A DNA stretch of 62,011 bases, the filler included. It is 12 parts of 12 records of this genome, joined end to end, with 100 filler letters (N's around TTAATTAATTAA, not from the genome) between each part and the next. Parts side by side here need not be neighbours in the genome. Positions count along the whole stretch, not along the records: positions 36,741 to 41,253 come from SRR7504441_16319; 11 more parts are not named here. One strand, 5' to 3'. Shown one piece after another: positions 1-55,253 of this stretch (position 1 is its first letter; each line of letters starts with the position of its first letter). The translations under genes and the position numbers were made by a program. The notes under the pieces are model-generated. The model searched no databases. It was not told the DNA's origin and worked only from the letters and a program-made list of their open reading frames with translations.

Positions 1-469
1 GTATGAGTCCAGTCTCGGCCCCGCCAGCCATGCGCATGTGCATGGCCGCCTTCTCTGCAAGTTGCTTCAGCGCGGGCAGTGGTGGCTCGACTCTACGGCG
101 CACCGCTTGGGCTCAGTCATCGGCCCTGAGAAGACAGCAGCTGCGGACCATTCGGCTGGTGCGCGCTGTTGCTGAGTCCAGCTCGAGTCGGCGGATCCGC
201 TGGTTCGCTCCCAGTTGGGGTCGATCGGCCTCGGCCTGGCCTGCTGCTGGGCTGGCGGCGTCGGACGGCCATCCGGTGAGGGCGGGAGCGGGATCGAGAG
301 CTGCGGCGGGGCGGCCGGCGGCTCGCACTCCCAGCCGAGCAGCTCCAGTTTCATCCAGCACTTCGCTGCGGCGGGTGCTCGACAGCGTCGCCTGCCTGCT
401 GGCGGGGCCGACTCCACAAATGGCTCAGCCTGCCAGCCGTTGGAGCCGTTGCTGATCATCGGCATAGCC

Positions 470-2037
470 ATGCTGCGATCGGCCTTGCGCAGGGCCACCA
501 AGGCGGGCCTGCGGGCGGTGGCAGGGTCGCGGTCGGCGCGGGCGGCGGGTAGCTTGGTGCGCCGCGCGACCCCCTCAGCTCGGCTTAGGCTGGTGGGCGC
601 GCCGCGGCTGGCGCGGACGTTCTCCTCAGGAGGACTGCCGCCGCATCAGATCCATGGCTTGCCGGCGCTCTCGCCCACCATGGAGATAGGCAATCTTACC
701 GAGTGGCTGGTGAAGGAGGGCGACTCGTTCAGTCCTGGGGACGTGCTGGCCCGGATCGAGACAGACAAGGCTACAGTTGACCTGGAGGCGCAGGATGACG
801 GCGTGGTGGCCAAGATCCTTGTACCCGCTGGCACCTCAGACCTGCCGGTGGGCTCTCCAATCTTCGTTGTGGTGGAGGAGGCCGAGGACGTGCCGGCTTT
901 TGCTGAGTTTGACCCAGCCGCTGCCTCGCCTGCTCCGACCGCACCCAGCACCCCTGCTGCCGCTGCTGCTGCTCCCACCAGCTCACCGGCGGCTGCCAGC
1001 GCGCCCGCCTCCAGCCCGGGCGGCCGGATATTCGCCTCGCCACTCGCCAAGAAAACAGCCGCCGAGCAGGGGATATCGCTCGCCAGCCTTCAGGGCACTG
1101 GCCCCAGCGGCAGGATTGTGCTGCGCGATCTAGCCAACGCGCCCGCCCAGCCGGCCGCTGCCGCCGCCGTCACGCCGGCGGCCGCTGCAGCCCCATCGGC
1201 GCCGGCTGCGTCTATCCCGAGCTCCGGTGGATTCACTGATGTGCCCAACAGCCAGATGCGCAAGGTCGGAGCTTTGCGAGGCGGCCGGTTGAGCTGTGGC
1301 AGGTGATCGCCCGGCGGCTGGTCGAGTCCAAGCAGCAGATCCCGCACTACTACCTCACCGTCGACTGCGAGATGGACACGCTGCTCACTCTGAGAAAGGA
1401 GATGGCAAGTGAGCACGGAATCAAGGTCTCGGTGAACGACTTTGTGGTCAAGGCCTCGGCCTGCGCCCTGCGCCAAGTCCCAACGGTACCTGCCCGCTCG
1501 GATCCAGCTCAGCCGGGGCTAGGTGAACGCTCAGTGGGGGGCGGATGCGATCCGGTATCTGGACGATGTGGACGTGTGTGTGGCTGTTGCAACTGAGGGC
1601 GGGCTAGTCACGCCAGTGGTGACAGACGTGCCGGGCAAGGGGCTGCAGCAGATCTCGGCTGCGGTCAAGGACCTGGCCACGCGGGCGCGCGATGGGCAGC
1701 TCAAGCCGGCCGAGATGTCCGGCGGGAGCTTCACTGTATCCAACTTGGGCATGTTCGGAGTCAGCCACTTCACCTCGATCATCAACCCGCCACAGGCAGC
1801 CGAGTTGCCCCGCAGCCGCTCACGGGCGGGCAGGTGGCCATTCTAGCTGTGGGGGCAACCATCCCGCGAGTGGTGCCCACTCTTGACGCTGACCCGGACG
1901 CTCCGCAATACAAGACTGTGCAGACAATGACTGTGACGCTCAGCTGCGACCACCGGGTGGTGGACGGAGCAGTGGGCGCCCAGTGGCTCAAAGCGTTCAA
2001 GGGATACATCCAGGATCCGATCAAGATGATCTTATAA
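470..2037 (+). CDS. DLAT: Pyruvate dehydrogenase E2, dihydrolipoamide acetyltransferase, mitochondrial
   Basis: Arg/Ala-rich targeting-like N-terminus, lipoyl domain (PALSPTM...IETDKAT), E3-binding domain (ASPLAKK...GTGPSGRI) and catalytic [10 protein letters not shown]. Introns at 1265-1302 (GT-AG), 1486-1522 (GT-AG) and 1796-1833 (GC-AG) join the frames. Confidence 0.95.
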
Positions 2038-2346
2038 ATCAGCCGGGCCTCACCTATTGCAACAAGCCGTTGGTCGGTCTGCGCTCTCCAAGCTCTAGCG
2101 TTGAAGGCGTGGGATCTTGAAAGGGTTAGAAAGGGTCACGTCATTCAACTGATTAAATTCTTGAACTATACGGACAGCAGATGAACACTTGAGCATCAGG
2201 TTGTCTAGAACACTTCAGATTTGCTCATTGGTCCAACATCGCAACATATTGACATGATTGACAGAGTCAGTGCGACTTACTTCTGTTGCCTAAAGTCGCT
2301 CAAATATAAAATCTGAGATGGCTCTCGACTGGCTTTGACAGCCCAG

Positions 2347-5300
2347 ATGGAGGACGAATCCTGGGCTGATGCACTGTATGAAGACCCACCGGACAATCCA
2401 CCGCAGCCGCCAGCGCCGCCGCAGCCGCCGCCGCCGCCGCCACCGCCGCTGGCCGACCAGATCGCCAGCCGCCGGGCCGAGGCGCTCCGAAAGCTCGAGC
2501 TTTCGCGGACCCGCCGGGCGGCGCGGTGGGGGCCGGAGGCGGTGAGCGGTTCGACCGGCCGGTGGCCTGGGCTGTGCTCTGGCTGCCGGCACACGCTGCG
2601 GCGGCAGGAGAATGGGCGCTGGGCCTGTGTGCGCGGCTGCCGGGGTGGGGAGGAGGGCAGGCAGGTGGTGCTCGAGTGGGCCCCGGGCTGCGCGGGGGTG
2701 CGGCTGCCTGGGCTGGATCTAACGGACTTCACCGGTCGGGCGGCCGATGGATCGGTGGGCCTGGCCGACCACGACCGGCTGGTGGAGTGGCTGGCCAGCA
2801 AGCTGCCGGAGGGAGTCAGCTCGGTGGGGATCCCGGCCCCGATCCGGAAGGCGGTCGCCGGGTACTGCGCAGGGCTGTGGGGGGCGGCGGAGGTGGCGGC
2901 CGGGATGGAGCGGGCGGCGGCGGCGGCCGGGCGGTTGGTGCGCCAGTTGCTGCCGTTTCAGCGCACTGGAGTCGAGTTTGCGCTCCGGAGGGGCGGCCGC
3001 TGCCTGATTGGGGACGAGATGGTACCCCCTACTGTATTCCAACGGTAACCGCTGGACAGGGGGTGGGTAAGACGCTGCAAGCGCTGGCCGTGGCGGCGGC
3101 GTACAGCAGAGAGGGGCCGCTGCTGGTGGTGACCGGGTTGAGTAGAATTGGTTTGATCGGTTTTAGGTGTGCCCGTCCTCGCTCCGGTTCGCCTGGGCGG
3201 AGGAGATCGAGCGCTGGCTCCCGTTGATCCGGCCGAGCCAGCTGCAGGTGGTCACGCACCGGGCCGAGTGGCGGCCTCCAGGCCCGGTCAGCTGCCAGGC
3301 AAACCAGTGCTGACTGTGCGACAGGAGGGGGTGGTGGTGCTCTCTTACCATCTGGCCGCCAACTTCCTCAAGGCGGAGCTCCGGGCGGTCGGCTGGGCGA
3401 TGCTGATCGCCGATGAGGTCCGCACGCTCCGAATCCCCAACCGACGTGCTGTGACAGAGCCACGAGCTGAGTTCGGCGATCAAGCCCGGCAGGGCAGACA
3501 AGACAGTCACGCAGGTGCTGTGCGGGCTGATTCGAGACAGTCCGCACGCCGTTTTGCTCTCGGGCACCCCGTCAGTCTCCCGGCCGGCCCAGGTCGGTTG
3601 GCGACTAGCAGCGCCGGCTCACGGTCGCTCGCAGCTGTTCGCACAAGTGTCGGCCGTCGCCCGGTCGGACGTGCTCTTTGGGCAGACCGCCCGGCAGCTG
3701 GCGCTGAGGTACTCCGCAGAGAAGCGCTACTCGTCCCACAGCGGCTCCGGTGAGCCGAGCACTGATTGGTCGATCAACAATTGGCAGGGTTTGAGCCGAT
3801 GAGCGCCGCGGCCGAGCTGGAGCTGCACACGCTGCTGGTGGCCACTGTGATGATCCGGCGGCTCAAGGCCCAAGTGGCCGCCCAGCTCCCGCCCAAATGG
3901 TCTCCAGTCGGATCGAGCTGCGCCTGAGCCGGGTCTCAGCCGGCAGGTGGTGCGCCTGGCTGTTGAGCCGCAGGGCGCCGAATCCGAGCTAACAGACTAC
4001 GAGCAGGTGCTCGAGTGTGATGGATTAATCTGATTGGCCGCAGGTGGGCCTGGCCAAGCTCGAGCCCGCCAAGGAGTTCCTAGGAACTCTGCTGGCCGGT
4101 CCAGTGATCAGTTGATTGATCTAATCGGCGGGCAGGGATGGCCTCTGACCGGAAGCTGGTGCTGTTTGCCCACCACAGATCTGTTTTCTCTGGGCTTTTC
4201 GGCTGGGCAACAACCCAACTGGGCGATGCCGGTGGCTAGCCCAGATTTAGCTGGCGCTGATGGCGCGCAGGGTTTAGTCACCTCGACGGGAGCACGGAGG
4301 CCGAAGACCGGAGGGAGGCAGTTCGAAGGTTTAACGGCGACTCGAGCTGCAGACTGGCGCTTGTGTCGGTCAGTTGTGTTGGATCTGCCTAGCTGACTGT
4401 GGGTCAGGTGACTGCTGGCGGCACTGGGATCAATCTGAGCGCGGCCGACACTGCAGTGTTTGCTGAGCTGCCTCCGCACGCGGCCACGCTGCTGCAGGTT
4501 GAGCTTGGTTGATCTCCACTGACCTAGTTGACTGCAGGCGGAGGACCGGCTGCACCGGCGCGGGCAGGCCCGCCCAGTCCACATCTACTACCTTTGCGCG
4601 GCCAGCAGCCAGCACGACGAGCGGCTCTGGCAGGTATCGGTCGAGGCCTAGTGGGCGGCTCAGCAGTGCGTGGACTGCAGCAACTGGACAGGAGTGCCCG
4701 GAGCACTGCCGCGGTGCTCAACGGCGCGGGCGACGCCCTGGCCACCGACGGACTGGCCGTGCACCACGTCGGTCGCAGGTGACGACTAGCGTTAACAGCA
4801 GCGAGCCTGTGGGGCTGTCAGTCCGCAGGCCGCGCCCGAGTCGACGGCTCTACAGCCGGGCCCAGCGCCGACAGAAGCTCTGGTCGAGTGGCCGGTCCAC
4901 CTGGACCGGGAGAGCCTCCAGTTCCAGGCACGGAGCGATTAATCGAGCGTTAAGCCGGTTTAGGTCTCTCACGCCACTGGGCGGCTGCACCTGTTCTGTG
5001 GCGGCGACCCGATTGGACTCAATGGCCGGCTGCTCGACAGGTCTGCCGTCTGTTGATTGCAGTTGGGTTATCAAGGTCGGTTGCAGCCCGGAGCTGCCGG
5101 ACCGGTGTGTCGACCTGCCAGACGGGCTGCTGGTCGAGCACGGAGAGGTCCCTGATTTATAAGTTAATTGGCTGAGGGCTGTGCAAGGCGATAAGACAGT
5201 TTGTGGCTGGTTGGACAGCGCTGCAGCGGCGGCATCAGCGCCGGATCGACCAGCCTCACTCGGCCAGGTCGGCGCCTTGAGTTCGCATCTGACGGTCGGC

Positions 5301-6492
5301 GCAGGTCTCTGCAGCAGGCAGTGGCGGCGTTGGCAGCCCAGGTGGAGTCGCTAAATTGCACGGCCTGACCGACTGTCAGGACGCGGCCCGGCGCGAGCAA
5401 CGACCCAAGAGCTCGGCCCGACACACCAAGGTGGACGGTTGATTCTGCTCAACTGATTGTGGATAGCTGGGTGCGATCCCGGACGATGCAGAAGCTCGGC
5501 ACGTGGAGTGGCTGTGTCGGCGGTGGGGGCGCAGGCCTGACTACTCTAACTGTGGTTTAGGTCCGGCGCAAGTTGGTGGCAGCAGCTGGGCCCAACCGGC
5601 CGGCCGCGGTGCCTGCTCTGCCGAGGGGAATATGCCGAGCAGGCCGGCGGGAGCGACGGGCAGTTTGAGCCAGCCGAGGGGCAGTCAATCCAAGGTGGGA
5701 CGGACTGCTCGATCAAAATTAACACAAGCCGACAGGGCTAAGACTGAACAAAAGGACTTTCTTCTGCACAGATCAGTGCCTCAAGGAGTGGGATATTCAG
5801 GCAGGTGGCTACCGGACGGCAATATTTGAGCTCGAACGTGGGGTGCCCTCTTGTTCGATTGGACTGGATTGATCGCACAGCTAGGTGTGCCAGGAGTGTC
5901 GGCTGGACGGGCACAAGCTGTATGAGAAGATCAGGAGACTACCGGAGCCGCTCAGGGCAGCAGCGCTGCAAGCCGAGCCGCGGTGCGACTTGCTACTTGT
6001 TTAACCCAGCATGACTGGCTCAGGTTCGATCGCGGGCTGAGCAACCGTCGACGCGCGGCGATTCTAACCAAACCAGTTGAGGGCCATTTCTGGGAGGTGC
6101 ACCATCAAGAGGCGGTCAAGGATGGTGGAGGCGAGTGTGGGCTCGAGAATCTAGTCACGCTGTGCGTAGTGTGCCACGCCGCTGAGACGCGGCGCCAGCA
6201 CAAGCAATGGGCCGAAGAGCGGAAGGAGCAGCGCAATGCTGAACAACGGCAGCAGAAACGGGCAGCTACGGAGCGGCGGCTGAAGGAACGGAAGCGCAAG
6301 TTTGTGGAATCATCGGACGAAGATGAAGCGACCGAGGGGCGAGTGTGGGCAGAGGCTGAGGGGCAGCTGAGCCTGATTGGGGAGCTCAAGGTAAAAAAGT
6401 CGGGCAATGGCCGGGTGGTGACGGCGTTGCCTCTGACGGCGGAGCTGACTGCGGCCCTCGAGGCGACGGGGAAGATGGTCGACAATGGTTGA
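2347..6492 (+). CDS. ZRANB3: SNF2-family annealing helicase with C-terminal HNH endonuclease (ZRANB3-like), about 20 short introns
   Basis: After splicing: LLPFQRTGV, DEM|GVGKT, DE|SH, LLSGTP, MIRRLK, GINLSAA, Q|AEDR and HNH motif WEVHH...GGGECGLENLVTLCVVCH. Example introns: 3022-3059, 3129-3166, 3277-3314, 3418-3457, 3750-3787, 3900-3939, 4928-4963. Confidence 0.85.
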
Positions 6493-8980: not shown

Positions 8981-9080
8981 NNNNNNNNNNNNNNNNNNNN
9001 NNNNNNNNNNNNNNNNNNNNNNNNTTAATTAATTAANNNNNNNNNNNNNNNNNNNNNNNNNNNNNNNNNNNNNNNNNNNN
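8981..9080. other. Artificial contig-joining spacer (44 N + TTAATTAATTAA + 44 N); first of 11
   Basis: Identical 100-nt cassettes also at 14090-14189, 17863-17962, 22630-22729, 32932-33031, 36641-36740, 41254-41353, 45403-45502, 49285-49384, 53140-53239 and 58899-58998. The 12-mer places stop codons in all six frames. Confidence 0.98.
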
Positions 9081-13723: not shown

Positions 13724-14427
13724 CACGGCCGGCCAAATAATTATTAAACACGGCTAATAAGAATATGTTTATTGCAATGCACGAGGTCATAATTATGCTA
13801 GTTGACCTATAATCATGCCGCCACTCTCCGCTCGTTCCCCACTCATATTTCTTGTTGTAGTTCTCACAACTGAGACTCGGCATCAGCACTGTGGGTGACA
13901 GTGCCTGAGTGGGTGAGCGTGGAAATCTATCGATAGACCATTTGAATGATCAGTTGTGGGGGGTGTACCTCACATTCCAACCATCACCCAAGTGCACAGC
14001 GCCACCTCTTTGGCAGACATTTGGCAAGGCCTTCCGGATGGCATCATCAGACATCCCATTGATTTGATGTCGTCAGCGCTCCTTGGATTNNNNNNNNNNN
14101 NNNNNNNNNNNNNNNNNNNNNNNNNNNNNNNNNTTAATTAATTAANNNNNNNNNNNNNNNNNNNNNNNNNNNNNNNNNNNNNNNNNNNNATTTTATTTTT
14201 TCTCGAGTCGGCAACTCTGCCTTGTAGTACTTTTGTAGTACAATACCGTAGTACCTGGTAATAATTATAACAGTATCGGATCGCCGCCTGCCTCCTTTTG
14301 CTGTTTCAGTTCACTGTCCCGGCGGGTGCTGCACCGGTCACGGCGCGTCGGCGCTGTACTGGTACAGACCCTGTCACTTTCGAGGGATAGGCCACAATAA
14401 AAGCAGGCCAACAGAGAGGCGGGGGGG

Positions 14428-32676: not shown

Positions 32677-33113
32677 GTATCGTGCGCCGCGTTCACGTTA
32701 TAAGCGGTTAGCTAGTATATGCATACAACCAATGTCACTCATACATGATTGTACAATTTATAGTATACGTAATTAACGATCATCAGTCTCCATCACTCGA
32801 GTCCAGGCTCATAATTGTTGAGATCGGCTCGGGGGCTCGATCTTCGGCTAGCCCGGTCCATCGCATGATGGCCGTCCGCTCGCCCTCCTTGTCAGTCATC
32901 AGGTGCGCAATGTGCAGCTCGACGCAACAACNNNNNNNNNNNNNNNNNNNNNNNNNNNNNNNNNNNNNNNNNNNNTTAATTAATTAANNNNNNNNNNNNN
33001 NNNNNNNNNNNNNNNNNNNNNNNNNNNNNNNGTGTCCACTGTTATAACGACATCAAGTACACGCAAATTTATTTCAACACAAACCATCGGGCCAACCACC
33101 TCTGCGGACGCCG

Positions 33114-36100
33114 ATGGTCCAGCCTCTTGTCCCCCAACGCCGGTTCGATTCCGCCGGCTCGGTGACCGTGCTGGCGGTCGATGCCAACGGGTACCTCTAC
33201 ACCGGCTCCGCCGACGGCTGTTGCCGCCAGTGGACCTCTTACAATACCAAGATCCCGGTGCGCGCCTACGGCGGGCACAGGGCCGAGCTGAGCGCGCTGA
33301 GCGTGCACGAGGACGTGCTGGCCACGGGCGGCGCAGACGGGCTGATATGCGCCCACCGGGTGGTGGCGGACCGGCCGTCCATGTACGTGAGTGACAGCAG
33401 CCTGCGCAAGCTGGACCAGACTGTACTAGGCCCAGCGCTGCAGGCCGACTGCGGCTCCCACCGTGTGACCGCTACCGGGTTTGGTGCGGGCTGCGTGTTC
33501 AGCGGACTAGCCGAGGGCGTGGTCCAGCGCTGGGAGTTCCCGTCAGGACGGCTTGTCGGATCGTACGCCGGGCAGCAGGCCGAGGTGACCGCGCTGCTCG
33601 TCGACAAAGACCGGCTCACCGCCGTGGGCGGGGACGGCTGGCTCCGGCGGTGGCAGCTGGACGGCCCGGAATGCGTCGACAGCGTCGAGGCTCACCAGCA
33701 GGCGGTGACGGGCCTGGCTCGCCTATCGGACCGCTTGCTTGCCACCGGCTCTCAAGACGGGAGTGTTAAGTTGTGGGCCTCCGACTCACTAGAGCTCTCC
33801 GCAACGATCAGGCCGGCCCAAGGCTCGCCAGTGGTATCACTCTGCTGCGCGTTCGAGGGCTCGGTAATCTGGTGCGACCACACTGGGCTTCTGGTCCAGT
33901 ACTGTGCTGAGCAGCGGAGGCAGCTCGCATGCTGGCAAGGCAACCAGCCGCAGCAGCTGGCTGCGGCCGAATCCGGGCTATTCGGGCGGACAGACGAGAC
34001 GGTGGTGTCTCAATACACCTCATGCGTGGTCTCCTGCCGGGCCGGATGCGGGATGCAACTCCAGCTGTCAGAGAGGAGAGCGCATGAGACTGACGAGTGC
34101 CCAGAGAGGCTCGCCGACTGCCCTCGCCGATGCGGTGCCCGCGGGTTGCGCGGTAAAGACCTGGCCAAGCACGAGGTGCCCGACCGGCTGGGCCTAGCCC
34201 AAACGACGAGTGCAGGCGGAAGAGTGCCCGGAGCGGATCGTGGAGTGCGAACTTGGATGCGGGATCGGCAGCCTCAGAGCGCGGCACGCAGCCCGGCACT
34301 GCTTTGAGTGCCCCAACCAGGTAGATAACTGGATGCACAGCCTGACCGGTCGGCAGATGGTGCATTGCCATTTCGGGTGCGGTGCCGCCAAGATGCTCAG
34401 GAGTGACTTAGCTGAGCACCAGCGCACTTGCAGCAAGCGACCGACGGCTTGCCCTTACGAGTGCGGCGAGACTGTGACTGCTCAGGAGCTCAATGAACAC
34501 ATGGATACCTGCAAGATGCGTCCAGTCCCGTGTCCGCTTGGATGTAGCGCTACGCCGATGGTCATGGTGCTCGATGAGCACATGGCTGATCAGTGTCCTT
34601 GTCGCCTGGTCGACTGCCCTAACAAGTGTGGGGAGCGTCCACAGGCCGGCCACTTGGACGCTCATCTAGCCGATCAGTGCACAGAGCGGCTCGTTCCGTG
34701 CGAGTACTGCGGCGAGTCGTTCAAAGCCAAGCGGCTGGGCGAGCATCGCGAGTCGGAGTGTGTGCACAGGCCAGTCGAGTGCCAGCTGTGCGGTGCCGTG
34801 CTCCCTGAGCTGGATTTAGCTGAACACCAAGCCACCACGTGCTCCCAAAGGCCAGTCGAGTGCCCAAACAACTGTGGGGCGTGCGATCTCTGGGCAGCTT
34901 GTCTGCACAGGCACCTGGGCGAGTGCACGCACCGGCCTGTTGAATGCCCCAGCTGTGGCGAGGGCCTTCCCCTGGCCAGCCTAGAATTTCATCAGCAGAA
35001 CAGCTGTCCGCTCCGCCTTGTGTCCTGCGAACTGGGCTGCGGCTTCCAAACCACGGCGCAAGAGCTCGAGGCACACATGAAGGATGACTGCCAGCGCCGG
35101 CTTGTGTCGTGCTCGCTCGATTGCGGCAAGAGTATGCCTGCGGAGGAGGAAGAGGCCCACCAAATGACCGAGTGCTGCAACAGATTCCTGCAGTGCGCAA
35201 AGTGCCACGGGATGGTTCGAGCCGGCAGCCGAGCAATCCACGCTCGGCAGCAGTGCCCGATGAGGATTGTCGAGTGCCGCAACCAGTGATAACCGCCCAT
35301 GCCGCAGCTGCGAGCCTTGGGTGGTAGGTGCGGGATCCAGGGCCTGACAGCGAGAGATCAGCAGCAGCACGAGATGCATGAGTGCCAGGAGCGTGAGGGA
35401 CTGCAGGTCAGCTGCAAATATGGCTGCATAGTACCCAAGAAAGAGCTAATAACGCATCAGCGCCGGTCTGACAGCTGCTTGGTGCATTGGGCTAAGCGAG
35501 TCTGGCAGCTTCTGTCCGTTTAGACCGGTGCAGTGCCGTCGAGGCTGTGGCATCACCGACCTTGTGGCAATGGACAAAGCTGACCATGAGGATCTCTACT
35601 GTCCAAACAGAGAGGTGTGCGCCGCAGTGTCTGTGCTGAACGGCTATGGCAGACAAGCTGCAAGCGGTGCGGCGAGACTTTCACTGTCAACAAGCGCGCC
35701 GCGCACGAGAAGCAATGCAAGGCCCGGCTGAGTCAGTGTGACCACTGTGGCGAGCACATGCCCTTCTGCGAGCTGCAGGTGGCTCAGGCTGGCGGAGTTG
35801 TTGTTAGGCTTGGTGGCAGGCTCACCGTGAGCAGAGCTGCCTATGGCGACAAGTGGCGTGCCTGCAATGCGCGGCTGAAATGTGCTACCACGAACTGGCC
35901 ACCCATAAGGCAACCTCCCACCCTAACAGGACCTAAGCCCTGCGCGCTCAGGCTTTGAGCTGCCCAAAGCGCCCAATGCGCTGCCCGCTCAACTGTGGGC
36001 ACGACACCAAGCTCACGTTTGAAGGGCTGCATCATCATCTTGAGAGCGTGTGCCCTCATCGCCAGGTGGAGTGCGAACTGTGCAGCGGAAGCTTCATGGC

Positions 36101-36571: not shown

Positions 36572-36740
36572 CGACTACAGTACCTAGCGATCTATACTAT
36601 AATAAGTTTATGGAAGAGCGCGTTGAAATGAGCCTGTGCGNNNNNNNNNNNNNNNNNNNNNNNNNNNNNNNNNNNNNNNNNNNNTTAATTAATTAANNNN
36701 NNNNNNNNNNNNNNNNNNNNNNNNNNNNNNNNNNNNNNNN

Positions 36741-39700
36741 GGCACCTTCCAGCTCGAGGAGGAGGACAGAGCAGTGCAGCCGTCCCCCACAGCTAGCGAC
36801 GGCCCCTTTCAGCGCAAGCTGGGGAGCCGAACGTTCAGTCGCTTTGATCAAGACACGATACTGGCCCAGAGCCTGCGACGCTCGGAGAACAAGCGTCCCA
36901 AGCACGCCTGTGGAGCTCAAGGGGCCCGCTGCTGGGTAGAGGTGGAGGATGGTCACAATAGCGTGGGCCAGGATGATGCTGCCACGGTGCCAAAACCGGA
37001 AGCCACGGATGCTTCTCCGGCACAGGACGGACTGTCGCTAGCGGTGAATCGAGTCGACAAGAGGAAAAGAGACGATGCAGGGCTGAGATGCCTTCCCCAC
37101 AGTGGAACTCAGCGCAAGGCAAGAGCGGGAGAAAGGCAGGGCAACTGCAAGGCTACTGAACAGACTGTGACGGAAAGCACGCTAGGGGCTTACAGTGGTA
37201 AGGGCCAGGCAAAAGCGGGAAATGAGTGCTGCATCCTGTACGATGCTTCTGTGGAGGAAGTATCGTATGATACGATGGAAGAGACGCATTGGGTGTGCAA
37301 CATGACCCATCAAGGTCAGCATAGCGATTTGATATTAAGATTTTCAAGTATCCCAAGTGCAAAAGATCTTTCTGACGCAGTTGAGAGAGAGCATGACTGC
37401 AACAAATGCTCTAGTTTCTTGCCAGGCCCTCCTGAGCGCGATCTGCTCGGAGAACTCCCGATTTCAGAGCCCTTTTCAGTTAAGGTGTTCACGTCAGGCC
37501 AGCGCGCATCATGCACATACGTCCCAGATTTGCTTTGTTCAGTAAATTCAACTCAAGGAGCAGCTGGAAATGAAAAAATACACATGGATCAATGGGTCAT
37601 AGCCCAGGAAATTGCGGAACGGATTCGCCGGATTTATGATCTTGAATGGCCAGAACTTTATCAGAAGTTCAAGAAGGTGGACTTTGTCATATTCACAGCC
37701 AACCTGTGCACAGTTGCGGATCAAACCTTGCGACGAGTGGAGGCAACTGGTGTCTGTGAGGCGTCACAGGAGCCTGAAGACCGTGTCCTGCGGTACAGTC
37801 AAGCCAAGCCAGTAAAAAAGGCATTTGTTGACTTCAAGGAAAGGTGCCGCCTTCAAGTGGATACTATGTTCATCATGATCATGGACGAATGTCATTGGGG
37901 GGTGCTGAAAGGCAGCGCCCATGACGACTACATCAACGACACCTTTTTAAATCAGGCAGAAAATGTAGTGATTTTGTTGGTGTCCGCCACACCATACTGT
38001 ACCCTGACCCTTGACAGTAGGTTGCCACAACGCTTAGTCTCTAAGGACAATGACAAAGTCAGCGCTTACATCCATACAAAGTCAAATGGGAAGGAAAAGT
38101 TTTACAGCTGCAATGAAGAAGGCCAGCTATTTGAAGCAGAGCCAGATTCAAGCTCAATGACAGACCTGCACCTAGTTTCTTGGGGCGAAGTTGTGGGTAC
38201 TGGTGCTAACCCACACCGCCTATGTGGAGAGACTGAGAACTGGCACCAACGAGAAGAACAGACGCACAAGTATCTCTCGCTCGATTACATCTTCAAATCG
38301 TCACAAGAAAGCAACAAAGAGTCCAGATTGTTGCGTTGCGACGATGATTTTGAGAAATTACTGCAAATGTCTTCGTTAAAACGATTTGACCCATCAGAAA
38401 TTTTGGCAGTAGATTACGTCTTTCACTTACTTCACCAGTCCCAAAACCCTAAGGAGCATTCTGAATGGTTCGTGAATTTGCCGTATGGATTTGGCAAGAT
38501 TGCCAAGCCCTACATCAAGAGCTTCATGGGTTCACTGGAAATTATGAATAAGGTTACACCAGCCCATGTCGAAGAGGTGATTACCTCTGAGAAGATCAAT
38601 AGAGACTGCGAAACCTGGAATATAGTTGAGGGGTTGCTCAACCCGCAGAAGATTCGGATGCAAGTAATCAGAGTTGGAGAGATCAAACATGGAGAAAATA
38701 TTCTCAAGCTTCTTAAAGCAGCGAGGAGTCGTTTCGGTTTTGAGTCCAAATTCGAGTTATTGGGCGATTTCAAGGACCTCAACATCAAGAAGGAAATGGA
38801 CCGCGGCTGGTTTGACAGCCTCCAAGTGGGCCGCAAGTGTGAGCACCGAGTGGGAAAGCTGCGAGTTCGATGCACATGCGATGCGTATATCCCTCCACCA
38901 CAGCACAGTGCCAAACGCAAGATAAAAAAATGTCATGTGTGTGGGCACAGCCATAACGCTGTTTGTTCTTATGGAGACTTGTCAAACAGGTCGCTGCTAC
39001 TGATCCTAGTGGCCAAAGGACGCCTTGGGGACACTTTCCCGAAAACTTTGAGAGCCTTGGACATGCGAGCAAAGCACCGGAGTGAGACACCGAGTGTCTC
39101 TACACTGGTGCAAGAGATCGGCCGTCTCTGTGGCTATTACAAAGAGGGCGATGAAAAGCCATTTGCCCTGTTGAGTAGATCGCTGTATTCGCAAATCCAA
39201 TGCGGTTCTACTAGTCAGCCCTTGGATCTGGTTCGTAAGCTGTCGAATTTGGATAACCACATGCGTCTTAAAAATGAGTCGGTCTGGAAGAGGGAGGGTG
39301 CCAAGGCGCGGTCATTGCATGAACTGGCATCCGTGATGCGGCAATCATTTGTTGCTCGTGACAGAGACGATGGTGGCCCCTGCAAGACGATGTATGATGC
39401 AGGGAGAAGCGCAGCTGTGCCGTTCCCAAGCTCTCCAACTCTAGAGCATGTCAAAGAGCGTTATCACCTACGGAGGCTGCTGTTATTTGCAGAGCCACAA
39501 CAAGGTAAGACCGGAGCATTTCTTGGACTGATCAAGGTGGCTGCGTTTGATCATTTCGACGTAAAGGTTGGTATTCAGGTGCTTCGAAGGAGCTTGGTGC
39601 CTTCACCAGGGCTTGAAGTTAACGACGACGGATTGATAATGATGAGGGCGGGTGTGTTGGTGGTTCTGGTGACATGCTTAAAGCTAGACAGAGATGGCAC

Positions 39701-41253
39701 TTGTGACTCAGGTGATGGTAGGTGTCACATACCCAGACTACAATGTCATGCAAGGCCAGATATTTGAGCACACAGCCCAAACTCCAGGTTATGTGACTCG
39801 ACCCCACTGTAGTGAGGTCATAACGATAGTAATTGGCTCACATTTTGTGTACCTACCGTCAGAGTATCGAGGGTCTGGCCTACAACTCATTTGGTTACAG
39901 GTGTAGGCAAGTATGGTGATCCAGCTGATGATGTGGTATGGCATCATTATTTGAGTGGCAAGAGGGGCAGCGCTGTGCCCCCTGAGGTCAAGGCTGGAAG
40001 TCGCCCTTCAACAGCTGGAGCTCGCCCTTCTGGGAGCAAGCCTGCCACTAATGCTGGCAGGGTTCAGGCGCTTCAACGACCTTGCACTGGGCAAATTGAA
40101 CTATGTAGGTTTGCTCGTTATGAGGCACGCATGCCGTGTCTAACTGAACGAAGCCTGGCACAACCCCAACGTGTGAACCTCTGCGCAGCAGGGTGCAGAT
40201 TGTCCGTAACTACACGAAGCCTGGCGCACGACTTTGATACCTCAACGGCGCAACCTCAGCTGCTTGGCTTTGGTGATCAGATGAAAACCAGTAGGGTGCT
40301 GTTCCCAATTTTCATCCCGTCAAGTGGCCGCCCCACGACAGCAAGGCTCGACCTTACGGATGCAATGCAGAATGGTACAGAATCTGAAGACTGGGGCTAT
40401 GTGCAATTTGTGTGCGTCAAGAATACAGAACTTGCCGAATATGAAACTCATTCGCCGCATTTGAACTTCGTGGTGCTACCTGAGTCCGCAAATGAGCTTG
40501 GAATTGGAGCTGCGCGCTTCTTCGCCCTTAAAGTTGCTGCTCGCATCTGTCACCCGAGCTTTAGAATGATACTCATGATGGATGACAACGTCCAAGCATG
40601 GAAAGCTGTCAACATGGGGAACGACGACCCAGTGTTCGAGAGCTTGAATTACCCTCTGGAGAAATTTAAGGATTCAAGACTAGGAACAAAGAAGGACTTA
40701 CCACTTCGGGAGGTGCTCAGTCACTTCCAAGACCCAGAATTTCGAAGCAGTTTACACAAATTTGCCATGATCGGCTTTGATAGATTCGGTAGGCTAGCCA
40801 CAACAGTGGTGCAGCCATATGCTCGTCGTCATGTCTACAAAGCCGTCATCATGAACTTAGATGTAATCGGATCAGCAAATTACAAGGAGCGCCAATTTGT
40901 ATGGGAGGACTTGGAGTTCAATCTCAGAGTTAGTGGCCGGGAACGCACCAGTGGGGGAGGAAGCAAGTTGCTTGCGGAGAGGGAGGCACGGGAAAATGGC
41001 GGGGTGTGGCTTGATTTCAGCTCCAGGCGTGCAAATGGGGAAAATATTCTGCAGGAAGCTGATCAGCCTGGCCCAGGTGTGATACTGAAGTGCTATAGAT
41101 TTCAGTACATTCAAGATCAAGCAGCCACCAAGCATGGTGGCTGCAGCGAGGAAGTTCTGCGACTCGATGGAAGCAAGATGAATCATGACGTTGTGCCCGA
41201 TTCAGACGGGGTTCCGAATGGTGCTCTTGAACAAGACCCTCCCCAAGCTTCAG
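36741..41253 (+). CDS. GREB1-like protein: circularly permuted SF2 helicase plus TET/JBP-associated-type (TAGT) glycosyltransferase; both ends truncated
   Basis: Walker B DECH (37884-37895), SAT (37983-37991), KGRLGDTFP and QEIGR all precede Walker A FAEPQQGKT (about 39486-39512). Then FPIFIPSSGR, LGIGAAR, MMDDN (40581-40589) and WEDLEFN. Frames can be joined by introns 39669-39711 and 39788-39900. Confidence 0.8.
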
Positions 41254-41353
41254 NNNNNNNNNNNNNNNNNNNNNNNNNNNNNNNNNNNNNNNNNNNNTTA
41301 ATTAATTAANNNNNNNNNNNNNNNNNNNNNNNNNNNNNNNNNNNNNNNNNNNN

Positions 41354-53239: not shown

Positions 53240-55253
53240 GCGATGCTTGTCGAGAACCACGACGGCCGGTCCGAGCTGGCCACCGCGATGGGCCTGATCG
53301 GAGTCTCGTACGGGGTCGGCATGACTGCCGGCTCGGCCGTCGGGGGGATGCTGGGGGTGGTCGACCTGAGGCTGCCCTATGTGGCTGGGGCGGGGGTGCT
53401 GCTGCTGGCGCTGGCGCATCTGGTGCTGGTGGTGCCGGAGCAGGGCAGGCAGTCCAAGCCTTTCGACTGGCAGCTGCTCAACCCGTTCAGCACGCTGATG
53501 GTCCTGTGGGAGACCAGCGGGCTGCGCCGGCTGTTTCTAATCTACGGGCTGCATGTGTTCGCCATGGCTGTCTTCGACATCTGGGTGCTGTACGCCAGCC
53601 TCAGGTTTGGCTGGAATGTGGAGCAGAATGGGTATTTTCTCTCAGCGCTCGGGCTCGCCGTGGTGGTGGCCCAGGGCCTGCTGCTCGGCTGGCTCTCGCC
53701 GGCCCTCGGGGAGCGCCGGCTGCTCACGCTGTGCATGCTGCTGCACGGTGTCGAGTTCTGGCTGCTCGGGCTGGCCACAAAAGGCTGGCAGCCGTACGCG
53801 ATTGTAGCCGTGCTGGTGGTGGGCAAGATGGTCTGGCCGCTCCAGCGGGCGATGGTGGCCAGGCAGGTGTCGGCCAGCCGCCAAGGTCAGCTGATGGGCG
53901 CGCTCGGCGCAGTGCACAACATGAGTGAAGTGCTTGCACCGCCACTCTTCGGAACGCTGTTCGCGGTGCTCGCCAACAAGGCCGACGAGATGGACGCCCC
54001 GCCGAGCGTGTGGTGGCTCGGCACGCCTTTCTTCGTGGCTGGCAGTTTGTATCTGCTGGCCTGCGTGATCTGGATCCGGGTCGGGCAGTCAATCTCGCTC
54101 GAGCAGCCCGAGGACTCGGTGATGCTCAGGACGCTCGCCCTGCCCGAGTTTGGCGGGAAGTCGCCGCGCGGACACAGCGACTATGTGCTCGCCTGCCGCT
54201 TCCACCCGGACGGCAAGACGATCGCCAGTGGTGGGCACGACTGCAAGATCAAGATCTGGAGTGTGCAGGACGGCAGGTGCACGAAGAGCATCAACGCGCA
54301 CAGCCAGCCGGTGCTCTGCCTGGATTTCACCCCGGAGGGCGACTGCCTGGCCTCGGGCGGCAAGGGTGGGTTCGTTCGGCTGTGGGACACCACCAGCTAC
54401 AAGTGCTTCAAGGAACTGACAGGGCACAAGAGCGAGGTACGTTACCTACGATTCTCGGACGACGGCTGCTGGCTGGCCACTGTAGGGTACGCTGCCCCAC
54501 GGTGCAGTGCATTGAGACTGTGCGGACAGGTATGACAGCACAGTGAGGCTGTGGATCTTCGACGACAAGCCAAACACCCCGGATCGGCACATTTCAGACG
54601 ACGAGATCCGGCTGTGCTACACATGGGAGGGACATAAGGGGTTTGTGCGTTGCTGTGCCTGGTCTCCAGATTCAAGGGTGGTCGGCTCTTGTGGAGACGA
54701 CAAGACGATCCGCCTGTGGGACGTGCCTGAACTGGAGACGGCTTGCACCGAGCCTCAGCAGGCCCCGACCTCGAAAGTGCTCACTGGGCATCAGCATCAG
54801 GTGTTTGCTGTCGCATTCAGTCCTGACAATTGCACGATGGCCTCGGGCGCATATGACGACACCTTGAAGCTGTGGAACTACCGACTAGAGACATGCTTGG
54901 TCACCTTGCCGATTGGTGCGCACGTGTTGTCTTGTGACTTTGGACCCAAGGGCGAGTACGTGGTTGCTGTCGGCGACGATAAGATTTTGCATCTGTATAA
55001 TGTGGAGGCTCAGAAGGAGGTTTGTCTGACGCCGGCGAGCCGTTTGACTGTGGTGCAGGTGGCCCAGCTTGTAGGCCACTCGGACTCGTCATTCGGCGTT
55101 GACTTCAGCCCTGTAGAGAATCTGATTGTCAGTGGATCACATGACAGAACAATCAAGATCTGGGATTGGGCACGAGCAATTAACGAGTTTGGGCTAGGGG
55201 CGACAGAGGGAGTTGAACTAGCGATGGTAACTCCAAGGCTCGAAGAAAATTAG
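53240..55253 (+). CDS. MFS transporter (TetA/MFSD14-like) fused to a C-terminal WD40 propeller; 5' truncated
   Basis: TM helices with LNPF, RFGW, LGERR and QGQLMGAL run in frame into WD40 repeats (GHSDYVLACRFHPDG...). Introns at 54487-54529 and 55020-55058. Confidence 0.82.

Follow-up and report, generated by a model that had tools for sequence, protein, structure and literature searches.

GREB1-like proteins join a circularly permuted superfamily 2 (SF2) helicase to a TET-associated glycosyltransferase (TAGT) domain, and their occurrence in Haptophyta and other protists, the permutation of their helicase and a link of their glycosyltransferase to base J and phage DNA glycosyltransferases have been published (PMC7968844). 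The idea that GREB1-type enzymes might glycosylate DNA is likewise in print, together with the architecture, the protist presence and the base J/phage relationship, and both domains have curated Pfam families (PMC7968844, PMC6163654, PMC4111573). The only member studied experimentally is human GREB1, which is reported to sit on chromatin and to O-GlcNAcylate estrogen receptor alpha (ER-alpha) and whose helicase is described as catalytically inactive (PMC7968844); literature searches, covering part of the literature, found no functional study of a protist GREB1-like protein. Here we describe a GREB1-like gene fragment at positions 36741-41253 of the window, by which we mean the whole 62,011-base stretch of DNA analysed. 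With confidence that falls a little short of even, we read it as encoding an enzyme in which the motor would track along DNA and hand hydroxymethyl-pyrimidines to the TAGT domain for glycosylation.

The window is made of 12 short contigs (3.0-10.2 kb each) stitched together by artificial spacers of the form N44-TTAATTAATTAA-N44, and positions 36741-41253 correspond exactly to one whole contig of 4513 bp. In the first reading frame, residues 279-809 match Pfam family PF20692 (cpSF2-GREB1, the circularly permuted SF2 helicase of GREB1 proteins) with an E-value of 2.1e-78 (265.1 bits against a cut-off of 26.2), and a downstream frame matches PF20691 (TAGT) with an E-value of 4.6e-22 (79.4 bits against a cut-off of 27.5). 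Both profiles thus score above their curated cut-offs, bearing out the GREB1-type permuted SF2 plus TAGT architecture put forward in the original prediction, and the E-values rule out a chance open reading frame (ORF). We are nearly certain that the contig carries, in truncated form, one nuclear gene from a marine eukaryote, encoding a GREB1-like protein that consists of an N-terminal region, a permuted SF2 ATPase with its Walker A motif last, a short spliced linker and a TAGT glycosyltransferase of the GT-A fold. The nearest named relative is a transcript product of the haptophyte Prymnesium polylepis, 43% identical over the helicase. The reading frame is open at both contig ends, so the gene lacks its N-terminus and its C-terminal tail. 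The layout of the fragment is as follows.

36741..41253, plus strand: whole contig with the GREB1-like gene fragment, delimited by spacers on both sides; the relative L002 extends about 310 residues further upstream and about 200 further downstream
36741..37574, plus strand: N-terminal stretch leading up to the helicase, weakly continuous with L002 by BLASTP from residue 129 on
37575..39536, plus strand: cpSF2-GREB1 helicase, from Pfam PF20692, the AlphaFold model and SF2 structural matches
39901..41253, plus strand: last exon present, with a basic linker, a small beta unit, the TAGT domain and conserved C-terminal strands, running off the contig
40302..40934, plus strand: TAGT domain of the GT-A fold, from Pfam PF20691, invariant residues and fold matches

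Residues 1-280 of the first frame gave no Pfam match at E<=0.01. All of the helicase and glycosyltransferase motifs previously named are present in direct translation and stand in the order claimed. Those of the helicase are the following.

37884-37895, plus strand: motif II (Walker B), DECH (translation)
37983-37991, plus strand: motif III, SAT (translation, alignment)
38838-38954, plus strand: Cys/His-rich insert in the second RecA lobe (RecA2), C-x-H ... C-x-C ... C-x2-C-G-H-x-H, with CTCDAY at 38871-38888 and CHVCGHSH at 38931-38954
39015-39032, plus strand: motif V region, KGRLGD (translation, alignment)
39111-39125, plus strand: motif VI, QEIGR, with the arginine finger (translation, alignment)
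39495-39512, plus strand: Walker A, PQQGKT, after all other helicase motifs (translation)

The helicase is circularly permuted: motifs II, III, V and VI precede Walker A, and the order is identical in the aligned relatives. We aligned the window protein with 16 relatives (17 rows in all), two of which carry the full animal GREB1 domain set. Motif II reads DE[CA]H in 13 of the 17 rows and DQAH in the two animal-type rows, one further row being truncated and one misaligned at that point. Motif III reads [ST]AT in 15 rows (SHT and TPT in the animal-type rows), and motif VI has the form Q-x-x-G-R in the same number of rows (EEIGL and QEIGL in the animal-type rows), while the GKT of Walker A is kept in all 16 rows that cover it, animal-type rows included. 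The animal-type rows have therefore lost motif III and, from motifs II and VI respectively, the glutamate and the arginine, which fits the published description of the human GREB1 helicase as catalytically inactive (PMC7968844). The window protein, with DECH, SAT, QEIGR and GKT, has what its sequence predicts to be the complete set of an active SF2 ATPase, as the original prediction had proposed, and the alignment shows that the non-animal members differ from the animal-type rows on exactly the catalytic residues. The Cys/His insert lies inside the helicase, again as predicted; it is common to the window protein and its four closest relatives, P0003, P0004, P0006 and P0007 (5 of 17 rows), is absent from the other 12 rows and is also found in L002. 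It is thus a clade-specific insert in the second RecA lobe that probably binds zinc.

An AlphaFold model of the helicase, built from a 37-row alignment, is confident (mean predicted local distance difference test [pLDDT] 86.6; predicted template-modelling score [pTM] 0.89) and shows a two-lobed SF2 helicase. Along the chain it runs through the RecA1 strands with motifs II and III, a large insertion domain, RecA2, a helical linker and a final strand, P-loop and helix (model residues 658-682, pLDDT 92-95), with Walker A between the strand at 658-662 and the helix at 669-682. The best structural neighbours of the model are all two-lobed SF2 enzymes. Foldseek returned MDA5 (E 7e-4), Dicer-2 and LGP2/RIG-I as its best matches, at template-modelling (TM) scores of about 0.26-0.30, and VIA-align returned a spliceosomal helicase, FANCM, HrpB, INO80, SNF2h, HsdR and RecG with Z of 8-10.4 over about 300 aligned residues. 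Modest scores of this kind would be expected for a model of a permuted chain. These matches bear on one alternative to a DNA-directed enzyme, namely that the permuted helicase acts on structured or double-stranded RNA and that the TAGT domain glycosylates a modified RNA base. The best Foldseek matches are indeed dependent on double-stranded RNA (MDA5, Dicer-2, LGP2, RIG-I) and in VIA-align RNA helicases of the DEAH type share the highest Z. However, the scores are weak and FANCM, INO80, SNF2h and HsdR score alike; moreover, an RNA-binding domain stands beside TAGT in none of the 77 relatives described below, whereas SNF2, HMG and bromodomain partners do occur. We consider the RNA-directed enzyme very improbable.

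The glycosyltransferase half of the protein carries the following motifs, each read from direct translation.

40305-40331, plus strand: PIFIPSSGR
40500-40517, plus strand: GIGAAR
40581-40589, plus strand: DDN, an acidic pair
40905-40919, plus strand: EDLEF, with its ED acidic pair at 40905-40910

Across a TAGT alignment of 43 rows, the window protein has all seven invariant positions (R143, Y180, G202, D228, G291, N318 and D336) and all 16 nearly invariant ones, and the acidic site formed by D227/D228 and E335/D336, invariant or nearly so in the alignment, is present. The claim of intact glycosyltransferase residues is upheld by these counts. An AlphaFold model of the domain adopts the GT-A fold (pLDDT 84.7, pTM 0.86). 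The solved structures that match it best are TarP, chondroitin polymerase, LH3, B3GalT5 and B3GNT2, at E-values of 2.6e-4 and weaker; searching the PDB by sequence with the TAGT piece returned only chance-level PIP4K rows (E 0.18). Among predicted viral structures the 21 best rows have E-values of 2.7e-9 to 3.5e-6. One third of these (7 of 21), all from phages, are named TET-associated glycosyltransferase, and another is a phage protein named beta-glucosyl-HMC-alpha-glucosyltransferase. The model-based matches thus support the kinship with phage TET-associated glycosyltransferases that had been proposed for this domain.

The helicase and TAGT halves lie in the same nominal frame with stops between them, and the helicase frame, read as given, hits a stop at 39765-39767. 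The junction between them, which the original prediction placed within 39500-39950, is not one simple intron: there is a clear intron at 39788-39900 and, separately, a change of frame within 39537-39721. The features of the junction are these.

39537-39578, plus strand: in-frame GT..AG segment of 42 nt, which would be a very short intron if spliced out and an insertion of 14 residues if kept
39631-39721, plus strand: frame-shift zone with two candidate introns, one of 70 nt at 39652-39721 in the sequence as given, the other of 53 nt at 39669-39721 and dependent on an extra A after 39631
39722-39787, plus strand: small linker exon YPDYN...AQTP (compare YPEYN in P0006, FPNYN in P0007 and YPVYA in L002)
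39788-39900, plus strand: GT..AG intron of 113 nt whose removal restores TP-x-x-GKYGDPA, conserved in P0006, P0007 and L002

A linker motif Y-P-x-Y-N ... T-P-x-x-G-K-Y-G-D-P-A spans the junction in P0006, P0007 and L002, and all three have both domains in one chain, in L002 as an uninterrupted ORF of 1918 aa. Because the intron at the second junction is clean and lies between conserved sequences and because these relatives have a single ORF, we take the helicase and TAGT halves to be one gene; the conserved linker and the one-ORF relatives argue against two separate genes. L002 (positions 1-5757, 1918+ aa), a metagenome contig, is the closest full-length relative and shows no introns over its length. 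Its N-terminal region is long and contains repeated 'ALRTLFNLA.DDAN' units, and its Glu/Lys-rich C-terminal tail is probably a coiled coil; neither its N-terminal repeats nor its tail gave a Pfam match.

The YPDYN exon lies one frame off the helicase exon, and the shift falls within 39537-39721, where enumeration found many GT/GC..AG pairs that would restore the frame. In a BLASTP comparison with L002 there is a gap of exactly 14 residues that corresponds to the 42-nt segment at 39537-39578, and dropping this segment gives higher linker alignment scores against all three relatives. Searches of sequencing runs found seven marine or aquatic metagenomes, and no RNA run, that share words with the contig (5-8% of words each), and four of these yielded eight short contigs (151-200 nt) that are 99-100% alike to it and cover about one fifth of its length. 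No splice joints were seen in these eight contigs, the uncovered four fifths or so being uninformative on the point. One of them, of 151 nt and lying over 39570-39719, has an extra A behind 39631 and a G>C change at 39663. The extra A may reflect variation between strains, or one of the two assemblies may be in error here. With the extra A, the 53-nt intron and the 42-nt segment removed, the linker scores against the three relatives are at their best (277/220/189); the sequence as given scores 254-259/207-220/177-180 with the 42-nt segment removed and 231-236/191-197/154-157 with it kept. These scores are suggestive of the extra-A splice model, although the one low-depth contig behind it may be in error and the unaltered sequence can be spliced in frame as well (39652-39721). 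The 42-nt segment would be unusually short for an intron and, together with the candidates of 53-70 nt and 113 nt, hints at very small introns. Just beyond GKYGDPA, at 39960-40060, there is a basic Ser/Thr/Gly-rich patch (S-T-A-G-A-R) that recurs in P0006, P0007 and L002; it could serve as a nuclear localisation signal or as a flexible tether that contacts DNA.

The junction raises the alternative that this copy does not yield a functional fused enzyme, either because the frame break is a genuine lesion or arose in assembly or because the contig comes from another organism, in which case conclusions about the lineage fail. The helicase frame does meet its stop and continues only by a putative splice, an environmental contig has one inserted base exactly in the frame-change zone, the gene is cut at both contig ends and the GC content of the contig (0.503) is the lowest of the 12 (the range being 0.52-0.65 for the others). 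We nevertheless regard this alternative as unlikely: all catalytic and invariant residues are intact over about 1400 codons and both domains, several GT..AG joins restore the frame with no change of base, a clean intron between conserved sequences forms the second junction, and the GC content at third codon positions of the gene (0.54-0.60) lies inside the spread of the ORFs on the other contigs (0.47-0.86). It is plausible, if not secure, that the contig comes from the same organism as the others in the window.

An exhaustive profile-free search with the TAGT-bearing piece among 1.84 billion proteins returned 224 representative proteins at E<=0.001, so the family is small. The nearest relative found was P0009, a metagenomic protein 69% identical over the TAGT region, and the helicase is 38-49% identical to those of the Prymnesium-type relatives P0003, P0004, P0006, P0007 and L002. 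We scanned the domain architecture of 77 relatives, consisting of the 76 listed matches of at least 400 aa together with P0008, with the following result.

30 of 77: cpSF2 plus TAGT, including two animal-type proteins, one with a bromodomain and one with a methyltransferase
1 of 77: cpSF2 only
9 of 77: SNF2 plus Helicase_C plus TAGT, one of them with a POLO box
1 of 77: ResIII/SWI2-SNF2 plus TAGT
1 of 77: TAGT plus two HMG boxes
1 of 77: TAGT plus methyltransferase
33 of 77: TAGT only, many of them fragments
1 of 77: an unrelated bacterial Ig-repeat protein

Fusion-bearing relatives from uncultured eukaryotes are P0008, P0049, P0058, P0078, P0084, P0087, P0095, P0134, P0140, P0119, P0083, P0132, P0030 and P0056, and the TAGT partners seen there are SNF2, a ResIII-type ATPase, HMG boxes, a bromodomain, a POLO box and Methyltransf_8. 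In a quick TAGT tree the window protein groups with P0009, P0010, P0006 and P0007 (support 87-98), the animal-type proteins lie elsewhere with one protist row (support 99), and the SNF2-linked TAGT domains form a clade of their own (support 100). Two scans of viral contigs found no true relative (L003 matches a low-complexity linker only, at E 5e-4), and a tblastn search with the window TAGT and helicase against 50,697 phage records gave no match. We rejected a giant-virus origin on the presence of spliceosomal-type introns and the lack of viral relatives in these searches.

By sequence and model, the fragment appears to encode two apparently catalytically competent modules, fused or fusable: an SF2 NTPase of a duplex-tracking type and a metal-dependent GT-A transferase. 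Going beyond the domain identities, the motif order, the intact catalytic residues and the confident folds described above, we infer ATPase activity, DNA as the track, an acceptor and a sugar, which we would combine into the following scheme. The helicase module would be a live ATPase stimulated by nucleic acid and tracking along duplex DNA in chromatin, with the Cys/His insert in RecA2 as an added zinc-dependent grip on nucleic acid, and it would present bases to the tethered TAGT domain. A separate dioxygenase would have made the hydroxymethyl-pyrimidine beforehand, and TAGT, with its acidic DD/ED metal site, would move a sugar from a UDP-sugar onto 5-hydroxymethyluracil (5hmU) or 5-hydroxymethylcytosine (5hmC) to give a base-J-like mark. 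Our principal reason for favouring a nucleic-acid substrate is that the complete motor is kept here, where the protein-modifying animal enzyme has lost its own. In addition, TAGT has been tethered repeatedly and independently to permuted SF2, SNF2, ResIII, HMG and bromodomain modules, which points to action on chromatin.

The same chromatin setting is shared by the main alternative, in which the protein is a chromatin-tethered protein O-glycosyltransferase similar to human GREB1, the helicase serving only to bring TAGT to chromatin, where it would modify Ser/Thr residues of histones or transcription factors. We think this possible, though doubtful. Human GREB1 has the same two-domain core and is located on chromatin, its reported O-GlcNAcylation of ER-alpha makes the protein-substrate caveat in the original prediction an apt one, and a like modification has been proposed for the GREB1-like proteins of Haptophyta and other protists (PMC7968844). 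The bromodomain, POLO box and HMG box partners fit the targeting of chromatin proteins, and the window ORFs and the 77 relatives show no TET/JBP. On the other hand, this alternative leaves an intact translocase motor with no obvious use, in a family whose known protein-modifying member has lost the motor motifs; the structures closest to the TAGT model are phage enzymes from DNA-modification contexts; and the window TAGT belongs to a different clade from the animal-type rows, to which it is only 22-25% identical.

Several observations weigh against the DNA-directed enzyme that we prefer. Foremost among them are the failure to detect a dioxygenase partner and the one experimental precedent: a TET/JBP domain is fused in none of the 77 relatives scanned and none was found among the other 95 window ORFs of at least 150 aa (about 57 kb of unlinked contigs), and human GREB1, alone in the fused family in having been studied by experiment, is reported to modify ER-alpha and not DNA (PMC7968844). 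The bromodomain, HMG and SNF2 partners fit chromatin-protein targets equally well. In the fold matches of the helicase, RNA helicases score equal to DNA enzymes, so that these matches do not separate DNA from RNA. The contig as given needs a putative splice or a correction of one nucleotide to join the two halves, and its assignment to the same organism as the other contigs is not secure because its GC content is the lowest of the 12.

The wider picture that we would draw, and which we offer tentatively, is that in a marine haptophyte-like clade a live permuted SF2 translocase with a zinc module drives a tethered TAGT domain along chromatin, writing a base-J-like mark in nuclear DNA, and that this was the ancestral, DNA-directed role of GREB1 before the motor was disabled in animals and their enzyme turned to protein substrates. 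If true, there would be a hypermodified-base system outside kinetoplastids and their relatives. The non-animal members have kept a complete motor and are structurally closest to phage DNA glycosyltransferases; if DNA bases are indeed what they glycosylate, an epigenetic mark so far unrecognised would be present in many algae and protists, and the origin of GREB1 would be explained. To this family the present contig contributes a clean example in which the motifs are intact and a clade-specific insert is predicted to bind zinc. The fragment offers no special leverage of its own, being truncated and from an uncultured organism and having no usable genomic context.

The remaining contigs of the window have features unrelated to the GREB1-like gene. 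Since all of the contigs were joined artificially, gene adjacency across the spacers is without biological meaning and neighbours in the window are not neighbours in the genome.

8981-9080, 14090-14189, 36641-36740, 41254-41353 and 7 further sites: artificial spacers, with stop codons in all frames
5926-6489, plus strand: HNH endonuclease match (E 2.6e-7) in an ORF that lies where the GC content dips to 0.52 on a contig that is GC-rich elsewhere
33048-35286, plus strand: a WD40 region and, after it on the same contig, five or more TRAF-type zinc fingers (E 5e-28)
53240-55250, plus strand: MFS transporter and WD40 matches in one stop-free frame, followed by another WD40 ORF

The double match at 53240-55250 probably comes from read-through of neighbouring genes or exons, or from a mis-join.

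Compared with known systems, the window protein is closest to the GREB1-like proteins of protists (Haptophyta, Heterokonta, Cryptomonada, Heterolobosea and others), which have the same two Pfam domains in the same order and, like it, intact DE[CA]H, SAT, QxxGR and GKT motifs. Nothing categorical separates it from them: the window protein and its own clade have DECH where most other protist rows have DEAH, and the window copy is truncated and interrupted by short introns. Within this group, the Prymnesium-type relatives have both the Cys/His insert and the linker motif before TAGT in common with it. Animal GREB1 and GREB1L also have a permuted SF2 helicase followed by TAGT and share the terminal GKT and the invariant TAGT residues with the window protein. 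In contrast, the animal-type rows have DQAH, SHT/TPT and EEIGL/QEIGL where the window protein has DECH, SAT and QEIGR, they are without the Cys/His insert, and their TAGT domains, at the low identity given above, form a separate clade. These rows (P0131 and P0154) carry GREB1_N, GREB1_2nd and GREB1_C, none of which was detected in window residues 1-942 and the TAGT piece, the extreme ends being missing from the contig.

The SNF2-TAGT proteins (P0008, P0049 and others; 9 of 77) resemble the window protein in that TAGT is tethered to an ATPase of the SF2 superfamily, but theirs is a standard, non-permuted SNF2 module with Helicase_C and their TAGT domains form their own well-supported clade. The base J pathway, as described, has a logic like that proposed here, in which glucose is transferred to 5hmU in DNA by a TAGT-type enzyme of the GT-A fold. 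Kinetoplastid JBP2 couples an SNF2 ATPase to the hydroxylation step that modifies DNA, much as cpSF2 and SNF2 modules are coupled to TAGT in the family of the window protein. The base J hydroxylases are JBP1 and JBP2, whereas the window ORFs and the 77 relatives yielded no hydroxylase partner for the window gene, and JGT, which has the glucosyltransferase role in the pathway (PMC8616854), is a stand-alone enzyme. Phage TAGT proteins (for example that of Ralstonia phage phiRSL1) are the best structural matches of the window TAGT, with TM scores of 0.5-0.65 on the phage side over 277-305 aligned columns, and share its Pfam family name; they are single-domain proteins of about 230-310 aa and only 10-20% identical to it. 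Set against these systems, the architecture, the intact motifs and the phage kinship of the original prediction stand, while its standing as a discovery does not, the permuted helicase, the occurrence in protists and the link to base J and phage glycosyltransferases being already in print (PMC7968844). The details that may be new are the clade-specific Cys/His insert, the DECH variant and the very short introns.

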